A stretch of 24,912 bases of DNA. It comes from a bacterium (GTDB lineage: Bacteria; Babelota; Babeliae; Babelales; RVW-14). The stretch covers positions 1 through 24,912 of the forward strand of contig JBDRBF010000006.1 of assembly GCA_043822925.1 (NCBI GenBank). The letters are read 5' to 3'. Position numbers and translations under genes: made by a program. Below are positions 2,953 to 21,025 of the stretch, one piece after another (position 1 is the first letter of the stretch; each line of letters begins with the position of its first letter). The notes under the pieces are model-generated. The model was not told where the DNA came from, made no database searches, and saw only the letters and a list, made by a program, of their open reading frames with translations.

Positions 2953-3045
2953 TAAGGGTTTGGAATCTACCCTTCGATAAACTCTGGGTGAGCGCTCATG
3001 CTGAGCTCTGAGTCCGTCGAAAAGTCGAAGCCTTCAGAATGACAA
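2953..3045. repeat. Composite palindromic element: family A shell containing a family C inverted doublet
   Basis: TAAGGGTTTGGAATCT...TTCAGAATGACAA resembles 12672-12739. The inner TACCCTTCGATAAACTCTGGGTGAGCGCTCATGCTGAGCT...GTCGAAGC matches the reverse complement of 18080-18129. Confidence 0.75.
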
Positions 3046-3062
3046 AACAAGAAAGACAAAAC

Positions 3063-3737
3063 ATGAACGAGTTACTCTTTATCACTCAAGCTCTTATTGT
3101 CAGTGCCGGGACTATCGGCGCCCTTTTATTGGGCAAAGAAGCACTTGTTGCCTTTATTTGCCTACAAACAATACTCGCCAATCTCTTTGTCACAAAACAA
3201 ATAGCTCTATTTGGACTGAATGCAACCTGCGGCGATGTGTTTATCGTCAGCTCTTTCTTTGGGCTCAATATTTTGCAAGAGCTTTTTGGCCAGGCAATCG
3301 TCAAAAAGACGATTGCCATAAACCTTTTCTTAGTCTTTTTTTACTTAATCATGAGCCAATTTCACCTGTTTTATGTCCCAAACAGCTTTGACAGCATGCA
3401 TGGACACTTTACGAGCATATTATCGTTTATGCCCCGTATCGTCATAGCATCAGTATTTACGTTTTTTTTAACACAAGTTCTTGAAATTTATGTCTTTGCG
3501 GGGCTCAAAAAACTCTTTGCTGACAAACATCTTACGCTACGCAATACTATTACGTTAGCAATAAGCACGCTCTTCGATACGATAATATTCTCTTTTGCTG
3601 GACTCTATGGCCTAATTGGCTCTATATGGCAAATTATTCTTGTTAGTCTTTGCATCAAAGCGATCGCTATTATGTGCTGCACACCGTTCACAATATTAGC
3701 CCAAAAAATTACGCGAAAAACACACAAATCGCATTAA
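3063..3737 (+). CDS. yhhQ: Queuosine precursor transporter (YhhQ/DUF165 family)
   Basis: Multi-TM protein with NLFVTKQI, RIVIAS and DTIIFSFAGLYG, directly upstream of tgt. Start moved to 3063 (MNELLF) because the 3039 ATG lies inside the palindromic repeat. Confidence 0.88.
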   Translation: MNELLFITQALIVSAGTIGALLLGKEALVAFICLQTILANLFVTKQIALFGLNATCGDVFIVSSFFGLNILQELFGQAIVKKTIAINLFLVFFYLIMSQFHLFYVPNSFDSMHGHFTSILSFMPRIVIASVFTFFLTQVLEIYVFAGLKKLFADKHLTLRNTITLAISTLFDTIIFSFAGLYGLIGSIWQIILVSLCIKAIAIMCCTPFTILAQKITRKTHKSH

Positions 3738-3772
3738 AATAATAATTAATTTAATTTTAAATCAGGACCAGT

Positions 3773-18129: not shown

Positions 18130-18134
18130 TTCCC

Positions 18135-20927
18135 TTATAAATCTGTATCGTCGTCAGCACCTGCATCAAACATACTGCGCTGTTTTATTTCTTTGGCTGC
18201 AACTTCAAAATCATCCTGTAATGCTGTACGATTTGAACTTGCTGAACGCTTCTGACTATTATCAAGACTGTCTTCAGAATTTTCTCCTGAATCTTCTTGC
18301 AAGTCAGCATCAAAATCGTCTTGAACATCTTGATCGTCCTGATCATCTAAACTATCTTGAGCATCAAGAGCTTCTAGATTACCCAAAAACTGCTCACCAT
18401 CAGCTTCTTGCCCGAACAATTTATCACCAGCGACCATTTTTTTGTCGCCAGGTGTCACGTCTTCATCATCATCTTCTTCTTGTTCAAACGTAAGCACCGC
18501 CGAAAGTGTTTGCCCTGCATCAAGTCTGACCAGTCTTACACCTTTTGCTTGTCTGCCCATTGTACGTACTTCTTGCGGTGAAAGACGAATAATCTTACCA
18601 TTTGTATCAATCAATAAAATCTCAGAATTTTCAGTTACACGCACAAGCGCAATAACTTCACCATTACGGCCACCGGTTGGAATAGTTCTAACACCAAGCC
18701 CACCACGGTGAGCAACTCTGAAATCAGAAATTTTAACACGTTTACCATAACCCTGTGATGTACCAAACAAGAGCGTGTCTTGTTCGCTAACCACTTCAAG
18801 CCCAACAACAAAGTCATCTTTTTTCAATTTAATACCACGCACACCAGCGGCTTGACGGCCCATTGACCGGATTTCATCTTCTTTAAAATGAATACCTTGG
18901 CCCATGCTAGTTGCAATAACAATTGAATTAGTACCTGAGCTAATCGCACAAAAAGCAAGCTCATCACCTTCATGCAAGTTAACCGCTCTAATACCGGTAC
19001 TACGCACTTTAGCAAATGCCATAGCGTCTGTTTTTTTAATTGTACCCTGACGCGTTACCATGACTAAGAATTTATTTTCCATGCCACGAGTACACAAGAG
19101 TCTAACAACTTTTTCACCTTCAGAGAGCTGAAGCAAGTTAACAATAGCACGGCCTTTTGATGTTCGAGAACCTTCTTGAACTTGGAATACTTGTAAGCTA
19201 AATACACGGCCAGTATTTGTGAAGAACAATAATTCATCGTGATTTTTAGCAACAAAAGCATCTTGCATTAAGTCGTCAGAATCATCAAGATCTGCCATAC
19301 CCTTCTTGCCTTTGCCACCACGTCTTTGTACTACGTATGTTTCAAGAGGCACGCGCTTGATATACCCCTTGCGTGTTAACGTAACAACCATATCATCATC
19401 AGGAATAAGATCAGCTTCACTCAAAATATCGACCGCGTCTTCTATCTTAGATTTACGCGCATCACCATATGTTTTTTTGACTAACTCCAACTCTTCAACA
19501 ATAACTCTACGCAATTCGTTTTCATCACGTAAAATAAGCTCAAGTTTTGCAATTAATATACGTAATTCTGAAATTTCGCCATAAATTTTTTCTTGTTCTA
19601 ACCCGGTCAAACGTTGCAATTTCATATCAAGAATAGCTTTTGCCTGCTCAAGAGAAAATTTGCACTTTTCTTGCAAAACTTCACATGCTTCTTGCGCGGA
19701 CTTTGACGCTTTAATAAGCAAAACAACATTATCGATATCGTTTAAAGCAAGAATAAAACCATCTAACAAATGTTCTCGATACTTGCTTTTAGCAAGATCA
19801 AACTCTGTACGCCGAGTGACAATCTCTTTACGATGCAACAAAAAGTGATCAAGCACTTCACGCAACGTAAAAAGCGCCGGACGATTTTGAAAGAGCGCAA
19901 GTAAAATAATAGACATCGAAGACTGAAGCGCCGTATGTTTATACAGCAAATTCAACACAACTTGTGGGTTCTCTCCACGTCTCAATTCAATAACAAGACG
20001 AATCCCTCCACGCGCAGATTCATCACGAATATTAGAAATTCCATCAATAATTTTATCTTTAACAAGATCAGCAATTTTTGTAATAAGATCTGATTTGTTC
20101 ACCTGAAATGGAAGCTCTGATACGACCAAAACCGGAGAACCTTTTTTCTCTTCTTCAACATCAATAACGCCACGTATGACAACGCGTCCATGACCGGTGC
20201 GATACGCTTTAACAATACCAGAACGACCACAAATTATACCGCCCGTTGGAAAATCAGGTGCTGGAATAATATCGAAAATTTCTTCATCTGTAATAGCGGG
20301 ATTCTTTAAAATAGCCAAACACGCATCAACAACTTCTGTTAAATTATGCGGCGGAACTGAAGTCGCCATACCAACAGCAATACCGGTCGAACCATTTACG
20401 AGCAAATGTGGAATTTTGGCAGGAAGCAATGTTGGCTCAGTACGAGATTCATCAAAGTTTGGAACAAAATGAACCGTATTTTTTTCTATATCATTAAGCA
20501 TTTCACGGGCAATCTTGGCCATACGCACTTCTGTGTATCGCATTGCAGCTGCGTTATCACCATCGATAGAACCCCAGTTACCCTGTCCATCAAGCAACGG
20601 GTATCTTTTTGAAAACTCTTGAACCAAGCCGACCATTGTTTGATAAATTGCAGCATCACCATGCGGATGATAATTACCAATTACTTCTCCAACAACAGTA
20701 GCTGATTTACGATAAGCTTTATCGTTATAATATCCAAGTTTATGCATCGCGAACAAAATACGGCGATGAACAGGCTTCAACCCATCCCGCACGTCAGGGA
20801 GAGCTCGACTGACAATTACTGACATTGCATAGTCAAGAAATGACGTCTTTAACTCTTTTTCTATTGAAAGTAACGCAACACCAGATTTTGGTTTATTATC
20901 AACTGTCGTATCGTTATCTGCAGCCAT
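18135..20927 (-). CDS. gyrA: DNA gyrase subunit A
   Basis: RALPDVRDGLKPVHRR, YHPHGD, AAAMRYTE, GyrA-box QRRGGKG, beta-pinwheel repeats. Start set to ATG 20927 (GGGGGA RBS). Confidence 0.98.
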   Translation of the reverse strand: MAADNDTTVDNKPKSGVALLSIEKELKTSFLDYAMSVIVSRALPDVRDGLKPVHRRILFAMHKLGYYNDKAYRKSATVVGEVIGNYHPHGDAAIYQTMVGLVQEFSKRYPLLDGQGNWGSIDGDNAAAMRYTEVRMAKIAREMLNDIEKNTVHFVPNFDESRTEPTLLPAKIPHLLVNGSTGIAVGMATSVPPHNLTEVVDACLAILKNPAITDEEIFDIIPAPDFPTGGIICGRSGIVKAYRTGHGRVVIRGVIDVEEEKKGSPVLVVSELPFQVNKSDLITKIADLVKDKIIDGISNIRDESARGGIRLVIELRRGENPQVVLNLLYKHTALQSSMSIILLALFQNRPALFTLREVLDHFLLHRKEIVTRRTEFDLAKSKYREHLLDGFILALNDIDNVVLLIKASKSAQEACEVLQEKCKFSLEQAKAILDMKLQRLTGLEQEKIYGEISELRILIAKLELILRDENELRRVIVEELELVKKTYGDARKSKIEDAVDILSEADLIPDDDMVVTLTRKGYIKRVPLETYVVQRRGGKGKKGMADLDDSDDLMQDAFVAKNHDELLFFTNTGRVFSLQVFQVQEGSRTSKGRAIVNLLQLSEGEKVVRLLCTRGMENKFLVMVTRQGTIKKTDAMAFAKVRSTGIRAVNLHEGDELAFCAISSGTNSIVIATSMGQGIHFKEDEIRSMGRQAAGVRGIKLKKDDFVVGLEVVSEQDTLLFGTSQGYGKRVKISDFRVAHRGGLGVRTIPTGGRNGEVIALVRVTENSEILLIDTNGKIIRLSPQEVRTMGRQAKGVRLVRLDAGQTLSAVLTFEQEEDDDEDVTPGDKKMVAGDKLFGQEADGEQFLGNLEALDAQDSLDDQDDQDVQDDFDADLQEDSGENSEDSLDNSQKRSASSNRTALQDDFEVAAKEIKQRSMFDAGADDDTDL

Positions 20928-20995
20928 CCAAGTCCCCCTTCCTAAAGAAAAAAGCAAAAATTACAACTCTGATTTTTTTAATTTTCTATCTTTTA

Positions 20996-21025
20996 TTGTC
21001 ATCCCAGACTTGATCTGGGATCCAA
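20996..21025 (+). repeat. Family A 30-mer upstream of gyrA
   Basis: Identical to 4995-5024. Confidence 0.95.

Follow-up and report, generated by a model that had tools for sequence, protein, structure and literature searches.

Repetitive extragenic palindromes (REPs) and Ssn-type hairpins are among the commonest repeats of bacterial genomes, and how they multiply is not settled. Here, we describe a contig of a Babelota bacterium (JBDRBF010000006.1, assembly GCA_043822925.1; 24,912 nucleotides, referred to in its full length as the window) that carries very small hairpin repeats, designated families A, B, C, and D, nested in one another. Several known systems resemble parts of this arrangement. 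CGTC-tagged REPs, including Neisseria dRS3 and Rickettsia RPE-4 and RPE-6, have been defined by a CGTC (or TGTC or CCTC) tag, an 8–9-bp stem starting with A-T, a 4–5-nt loop, and a CCA tail (PMC3733652); the parts of that survey covered here describe them as lacking a dedicated transposase (Di Nocera, De Gregorio and Rocco 2013, PMC3733652). NTS/SRM repeats stand in a repeat–ssnA–repeat layout, the SsnA-type protein being a single-domain GIY-YIG protein of about 94 amino acids (cd10448) that cleaves single-stranded DNA a few bases 5′ of the hairpin, and according to the covered parts of the report, SsnA dispenses with loop identity and tolerates loop extensions (Chenal et al. 2025, PMC11893778). 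Elements of the IS200/IS605 and REP/RAYT (REP-associated tyrosine transposase) systems insert in one orientation, without target duplication, beside a short conserved sequence, and in a hairpin-dependent manner (PMC6006769). In Coxiella, the insertion sequence IS1111 inserts into the GTAG REP of QMITE2 (PMC5896051).

At the present locus, the repeats probably form a hierarchy of single-stranded DNA hairpins in which guest units of families B and D are joined precisely into host hairpins and the loaded hosts are copied. The nesting is precise, oriented, and tied to a fixed site; empty and filled sites exist, whole composites have been copied, and the pattern recurs in other genera. The elements themselves are of known kinds, and the undescribed behavior lies in the one-way nesting at a fixed bond and the hitch-hiking of cargo. 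The full-text literature searched (supplementary files lay outside the search) held no description of REPs or 30-nt hairpins nested at a fixed bond of another REP. In its covered parts, the CGTC REP survey mentions REPs inside other palindromes only in passing, and it discarded repeats with unusual loops, so that loaded hairpins are undescribed there (PMC3733652); loop-nested repeats are likewise without mention in the covered parts of the SsnA report (PMC11893778). As with IS1111 and QMITE2, a hairpin repeat is the specific landing site for another mobile element, although the guest in that case is a full insertion sequence with a transposase and here is a 30-nt non-coding hairpin.

Precise nesting of guest hairpins in host hairpins

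The source genome (G000) spans 1.52 Mb in 86 contigs with 37% G+C, and the window is its contig C6. Second versions of window positions 11698–21410 and 3161–9831 lie on contigs C57 and C80, respectively, at 77–90% identity (about 88% for C57). This second version, roughly 15 kb, represents either a co-binned related strain or a large duplication, and because two versions stand inside one assembly, genome-wide copy counts may mix both.

Family A consists of a TGTC tag, ATCCCAGA, a CTTGA loop, TCTGGGAT, and a CCA tail, with an 8-bp stem. The first-pass annotation, made from the letters of the window, had described three identical copies and variants at 12672, 17472, and 2953; all were recovered, the last being a degenerate A with a C dimer between its halves. 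The window holds three exact copies of the 30-mer TTGTCATCCCAGACTTGATCTGGGATCCAA (4995 on the forward, 16734 on the reverse, and 20996 on the forward strand), against none in 100 shuffles, and the intact A pattern has 41 copies genome-wide. An intact copy at 20993–21029 folded as DNA at −8.1 kcal/mol (z −3.41 relative to shuffles). The stem variants CCCAGA, CCTGAA, and CCTGGA co-vary, and the tag before the stem is TGTC or CGTC in the listed A copies. With its tag, stem, loop, tail, and dispersed copies, A is a CGTC/TGTC-tagged REP and thus an element of a known kind, which it also resembles in the A-T start of its stem, its 5-nt loop, its copy number, and its partly intragenic location (PMC3733652).

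Families B and D are imperfect hairpins of 26–47 nt, the foot being CCTG in B and CCGTG in D. The latter family, of the form CCGTGCCCGGCG...GCCTGGG, is a fourth one that emerged in the follow-up. B copies lie at 11557–11589, 11604–11639, 12692–12722, 17513–17542, and 18022–18068 (a long variant in the opposite orientation) and C copies at 2969, 11540, 17488, 17498, and 18080, where the first reading had placed them. B and D are single units, and C forms head-to-head C2/C1 inverted doublets, such as that at 18078–18131 (fold z −3.27). The census extended these hairpins beyond the window as multi-copy families: besides the 41 intact A copies, the genome contains 32 C cores (up to one mismatch), 47 short-B matches (nhmmer, E below 10), and 14 junctions of the left part of A with CCWG (A-left+CCWG), and reversed-pattern controls run beside the intact-A, A-left+CCWG, and C-core counts gave 0 in each. 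Long B variants with a CCATCC/GGATGG stem were also observed on contig C2 (about 68172), contig C38 (about 26874), and contig C55 (about 58084); by eye, they abut an apparent reverse complement of a tRNA 3′ end and may be terminator-like or occupy a preferred site.

Nineteen A hairpins have an interior of 25–60 nt. In 15 of them, this interior comprises 3–5 loop bases, a sequence starting with CC[TA]G, and the last loop base; the remaining four hold one C-type unit, one D-type unit, and two degenerate or other inserts. Motif censuses with a fixed loop length overlook about one in four A copies here. B and D are joined to A at the bond CTTG^A, after loop base 4, without target duplication, and the CCTG strand of the guest is the strand that bears the TGTC tag of A (for guests ending in G, the position of the junction is ambiguous by 1–2 bases). 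No reverse-oriented B was found among the 19 loaded A hairpins. The interruption of A at one and the same bond at 12691 and 17487, noticed at the outset, was borne out, and nesting as a whole is far above chance, with a fixed site and orientation.

Each guest was excised in silico, its flanks were joined, and the resulting 24-mer was sought elsewhere in the genome. The 30 guests of the set were chosen by strict patterns spanning the whole element and comprised 14 short B, five B2, five B4, and six D. Twenty-four restored a 24-mer present elsewhere, 23 of them at least five times, compared with 8 of 300 random 33-nt segments, for which the maximum was two matches. As the healed flanks match 24-mers elsewhere, B inserts without target duplication, in agreement with the initial claim; the flanks of the guests at 12692–12722 and 17513–17542 heal to 24-mers found 8 and 21 times, respectively.

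The bond in C is CCCTG^AGCT, and healing at this bond was obtained for four of five B4, five of six D, and two of five B2 guests. Short B occupies a further site in C, GAGCTTG^TCGAAG, and B is also nested in B, after TCGA. The earlier remark that B follows a T is true but carries no information; conservation is found at the opposite flank, where G precedes CCTG in 21 of the 23 full-length short-B matches, the preceding tetranucleotides including CTTG (nine), CTCG (four), and TTTG (two). CTTG alone occurs at 15,804 sites in the genome (0.52% of tetramers), so more than a tetranucleotide decides the location of B. The families are ordered as a hierarchy: A and C act as hosts for the guests B and D, C itself also occurs inside A, and B units are found within B. 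No A was observed inside a B or C unit, and the mutual targeting of hairpins that had been proposed must be replaced by this hierarchy.

The window holds several loaded hosts. At 12672–12750 (reverse strand), an A hairpin carries a 31-nt B2 guest (12692–12722) after loop base 4. A four-element nest at 11538–11692 (reverse strand), parsed by reading the sequence, has a C-type host (head 11540–11556, tail about 11667–11690) that carries short B (11557–11589) and a D-like unit (about 11640–11666 plus 11590–11603) with B2 inside it (11604–11639; B2 core match at 11632). An in-frame composite in dprA at 17467–17568 (reverse strand) comprises the 3′ half of an A (17470–17487), a C fragment (17488–17497), a C unit (17498–17512 and 17543–17554) with a B4 guest inside (17513–17542), and a C tail (17555–17568). 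At 2953–3040 (reverse strand), the halves of a degenerate A (about 2953–2968 and 3021–3040), read directly and folding weakly (z −1.0), are separated by a head-to-head dimer of C (2969 to about 3020; C head at 2972), whose inverted repeat I1 matches the dimer at 18090–18129.

Movement, copying, and recurrence in other genomes

Both empty and filled sites exist between the window and C57, versions of this region that share 85–90% identity. Three A units of the window are missing from C57, namely the A-with-B unit at 12672–12750 and the A copies at 16727–16768 and 20993–21029. The C dimer at 18078–18131 is empty in the window, at CCCT^AAGCTTG, and holds a 30–32-nt D-like guest in C57. In dprA, C57 has one C-like unit in place of the four-piece composite of the window, which is 72 nt longer. 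Comparison of C80 with the A copy at 4995 gave no clean empty/filled pair; C80 has extra DNA there and ends at window position 3161. The nests are not assembly artifacts, since contigs of runs X1, X2, and X3 show the window form without a single difference over composite parts (uncovered parts carry no meaning): an X1 contig spans the unit at 12672–12750, and X2 and X3 cover parts of the dprA composite. Run X4 skips 12675–12757 and has the same joints as C57, and therefore it is not independent.

The composites arose by two processes, independent insertion and the copying of loaded hosts as a whole, with recombination as a third contribution. An identical 34-nt guest occupies A hosts of different stem on contigs C13 (CCTGAA) and C84 (CCCAGA), and B2 has hosts among A, C, and D-like units; the same guest in differing hosts is evidence of independent insertion events. 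Contigs C4 and C47 carry three-level composites that differ at only a few of about 110 aligned positions, and the flanks of the two do not align. Those on contigs C63 and C64 are likewise near-identical in non-aligning flanks. Such whole-composite copying fits the behavior of SsnA, which is reported, in the covered parts of the source, to be independent of loop sequence and tolerant of loop extension (PMC11893778). The reservation expressed beforehand, that the composites might be fixed larger elements, consequently holds in part, because some of them were copied whole.

To place these findings among relatives, we used samples of 251 genomes from the phylum and 34 from the family. Intact A was present in 43 of the 251 genomes; in the family sample, the C core was found in 19 genomes, the B2 head in 23, PF01797 in 15, and an Ssn-like protein in 24. 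The A-left+CCWG junction occurred in four of the 34 genomes, the source genome (14 junctions) and members of three other genera, G001 (6), G005 (3), and G234 (2). At the eleven junction sites read, the bond was the same, and the A stem and the B variant were those particular to each genome. A short-B core pattern with a fixed 4-nt gap matched the source genome only and is too strict to inform on relatives.

An exact A 27-mer was found in 82 stretches of public genomes (L005–L086) from many phyla, which points to horizontal spread. Its hosts include Saccharibacteria, other Patescibacteria, Zixibacteria, Robiginitomaculum, and Aquimarina, and an inverted partner hairpin with a different stem often follows 10–30 nt later.

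Candidate enzymes and competing explanations

Two small GIY-YIG (Ssn-type) genes outside the window each lie between inverted A copies of their own stem type. One, on contig C2 (35325–35630), is flanked by A at 35262 on the forward strand and 35684 on the reverse strand; the other, on C57 (5811–6113), is flanked at about 5767 and 6145. Their proteins match PF01541 at 52.1 and 51.5 bits, with an open reading frame of 101 amino acids, and matches to NCBIfam are only weak. The repeat–gene–repeat layout at two loci, the small, putatively single-domain GIY-YIG protein, the oriented hairpin, and the conserved flanks resemble the NTS/SRM–SsnA system, whereas A fails the published SRM search string (PMC11893778). 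None of the 41 intact A copies fits this string, and the whole genome yields one match versus five in the block-shuffled genome; the A copies miss it because their stem is AT-richer. A is thus Ssn-associated by genomic context and not by the SRM motif, and its assignment to the RAYT-type REPs is not supported.

Two further observations concern the surroundings of such genes. C57 4188–6240 is about 2 kb extra relative to window positions of about 15766–15828 and holds the ssnA-type gene between inverted A copies; about 20–30 bases of target (GCGCAATTCAAACATCGG...) stand on both sides and look like a duplicated target. On contig C2, at 23150–24230, a Y1 cassette lies between two copies of the same target of about 70–100 bases, and the right-hand copy also carries an A hairpin with a C guest, constituting an internal empty/filled pair for A.

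Four Y1 (PF01797) matches occur in the genome, three of them intact, on contigs C2, C83, and C68, and one broken, and none lies in the window. The initial statement that the window lacks a transposase holds for Y1 and GIY-YIG, which gave no match on contig C6, with the remaining open reading frames not all screened. The three intact proteins score 82.5, 77.3, and 72.4 bits against the IS200/IS605 model NF033573 (cut-off 55) and 31, 28.8, and 20.7 bits against the RayT model NF047646, below its cut-off of 80. Oriented, duplication-free insertion 3′ of a short sequence is common to B, D, and IS200/IS605, with a target looser here than a fixed tetranucleotide. Distinct left and right subterminal hairpins were not found, B and D being single hairpins of 26–47 nt, and neither family has a GT[AG]G tag at its foot, GTAG occurring only inside B. 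The resemblance to the IS200/IS605 and REP/RAYT systems, as far as these are covered in PMC6006769, therefore extends to orientation, absence of duplication, the short conserved neighbor sequence, hairpin dependence, and the presence of Y1 genes; it ends at the single hairpin without distinct ends, the foot CCTG instead of GTAG, and the absence of a consistently B-flanked Y1 gene. On contig C83, directly oriented hairpins resembling short B flank the Y1 gene on either side, as guests in another repeat, and this applies to one of the three intact genes. Several further hairpin families adjoin Y1 genes. Ownership of B by Y1 genes is disfavored by 16 loci in nine relatives, which show two protein types, each with its own ends and none of B type. 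Candidates for the inserting enzyme are encoded by the three intact Y1 genes of IS200-like type and by the pair of Ssn-type GIY-YIG genes.

We propose the following route for the hierarchy. Family A, a TGTC/CGTC REP of the Ssn-linked kind, would have been mobile since two lineages of about 88% identity split. B and D would be joined between a short sequence with a terminal G, in most cases CTTG or CCTG, and a following A, without target duplication, by a site- and strand-specific cut-and-join on single-stranded DNA, presumably once extrusion of the host hairpin has exposed the short target. The logic would be that of the "peel and paste" of IS200/IS605, with B and D known by their footprint and not as members of that family. 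A loaded host would keep its stem and flanks, so that copying could continue with the cargo. Any mechanism must respect strand, site, and the tolerance of loop cargo, given one bond, one direction, and loaded hairpins that are still copied, and the nested hairpins are natural substrates for assays of Ssn and Y1 enzymes.

Several findings weigh against this route. Six of the 30 guests are unhealed; by eye, four of these lie in degenerate hosts, and two appear to be free or almost free. The target rule is not strict: guests of the CCTGTCC type follow TCGA or GCGA in B or D-like hosts, and the insertion site in C is in or beside the stem and not in the apical loop. The fold of B, as judged from the long copy at 18022–18068, is no more stable than that of shuffled sequence (z 0.17). 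B4 occurs only in C (five of five), which one founding event could explain, and since composites are copied whole, true insertion events are far fewer than nested copies. The dprA composite, with only half an A, points to recombination between repeats. In another genome of the sample, G011, B lies in an A-like hairpin at a different position and in the opposite direction, and its B copies are nested mostly in B arrays; the nesting rule therefore varies between genomes.

The enzymes add further points of this kind. At 16 Y1 loci in nine relatives, whose flanks were read by eye, no B-type hairpin forms an end, and Y1 genes of the source-genome type have flanking repeats of their own that differ from these, so that no enzyme is tied to B or D. 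Among the family genomes, 12 have five or more B2 heads and 11 have none; PF01797 was detected in 7 and 3 of these, respectively, and G009 (95% complete) has 12 B2 heads and zero Y1 matches. An Ssn-like match was detected in 11 of the 12 versus 6 of the 11; these genomes are kin and not independent, and the tallies are too weak to decide. The co-occurrence of Ssn and B2 is a hint that may reflect a need of B for A-type hosts.

A related reading, which we regard as a serious though lesser possibility, takes B and D to be "hyperparasitic" units. They would be put into one bond, above all in the loop of Ssn-type hairpins, by an undescribed hairpin-directed single-strand cut-and-join, perhaps linked to Ssn and not to Y1, and would ride along when their hosts are copied, which would yield the three-level nests.

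The first-pass annotation had regarded A, B, and C alike as REPs or REP doublets (REPINs) moved in trans by RAYT/IS200-like HUH transposases and targeting each other's hairpins. Oriented, duplication-free insertion beside a short conserved sequence is established for the Y1 element IS608. The behavior of the guests agrees with it, and the genome does hold Y1 genes, of the four matches three being open, one of them on contig C83 between short-B-like hairpins; this part of the idea stood. It failed on the fit to RayT, on consistent B flanks, including those of the 16 Y1 loci of relatives, and on the pairing of A, which brackets GIY-YIG genes and not Y1 genes. Moreover, C is abundant in genomes without a Y1 match (21 copies in G010, 34 in G206, and 15 in G017), and no case of A inserted in B or C was observed. 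We consider this explanation unlikely.

Slightly less likely still is that the composites are a few fixed larger elements, nested once or a few times and multiplied via the outer hairpin without any active targeting. The near-identical composites at unrelated loci on C4/C47 and C63/C64 would be expected on this account, as would six near-identical A-with-B units in G001, the restriction of B4 to C, and the location of D in C in five of seven loose-core matches. However, it does not accommodate the same guest in hosts with different stems, the three host families of B2, the guest-only difference between the window and C57 in the C dimer, or the repeated nesting of B in B. Four genera, each with its own host and its own guest variant, also share the same bond.

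Mosaics produced by recombination, gene conversion, or slippage between short repeats, as proposed for NIMEs and BIMEs, would dispense with insertion altogether. Traces of such events are present: the dprA composite has the 3′ half of A abutting C, as in A-with-C composites elsewhere; the long B of the window and the short B with nested long B of C57 are distinguished by two gaps, both with short direct repeats at their borders; and the A at 14143 lacks exactly its hairpin. As a general explanation, this is improbable, as it leaves unexplained the single bond and orientation shared by 15 of the 19 loaded A hairpins and the exact healing of 23–24 of 30 guests. Very improbable, finally, is untargeted insertion in which only copies inside other repeats ("safe havens") survive selection in a compact genome: the small size of the genome, the in-frame copies in dprA, and the loop-extension tolerance reported in the covered parts of the SsnA study (PMC11893778) would suit it, but selection would permit both orientations and many positions where one is observed, and intergenic DNA outside repeats has very few B, only 2 of the 30 strict guests looking free.

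Other features of the window

The genes named by profile matches in the window include tgt, murB, dprA, and gyrA. Intact A hairpins lie on the forward strand 3′ of tgt (4992–5029, an exact copy of the 30-mer) and upstream of gyrA (20993–21029). An A-type element without a hairpin, TTTGTCAT|TCTAAGCC, lies at 14143–14165 on the forward strand; C57 has 26 more bases there, equal to the full hairpin, and the loss is possibly an excision footprint or a deletion.

The dprA gene (16568–18013, reverse strand; TIGR00732, 225.5 bits) has 481 codons and remains open through two repeat insertions, compared with 396–426 codons in six relatives. In an alignment with these relatives and C57, the extra residues fall at two linkers, the composite accounting for 24 codons more than in C57 and an intact A of 42 nt (16727–16768, reverse strand) for 14; this A is in frame and occupies the linker that precedes the C-terminal domain. 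Like the Rickettsia palindromic elements (PMC3733652, in its covered parts), these inserts are in frame in linkers of a housekeeping gene and keep its reading frame open; unlike them, the composite is a multi-family stack grown stepwise, as seen in the comparison with C57. Essential genes such as dprA can gather multi-repeat in-frame inserts.

The spacer between dprA and gyrA contains the long B variant of 47 nt (18022–18068, forward strand), preceded by TTTG. The C2/C1 dimer at 18078–18131, for which no strand is assigned, forms a hairpin with a 12-bp stem. Rfam gave zero matches to the window at gathering thresholds. Window positions 1–300 consist of a degenerate, 15-nt-periodic, GCT-rich coding repeat (family D1) that is unrelated to the hairpin families.

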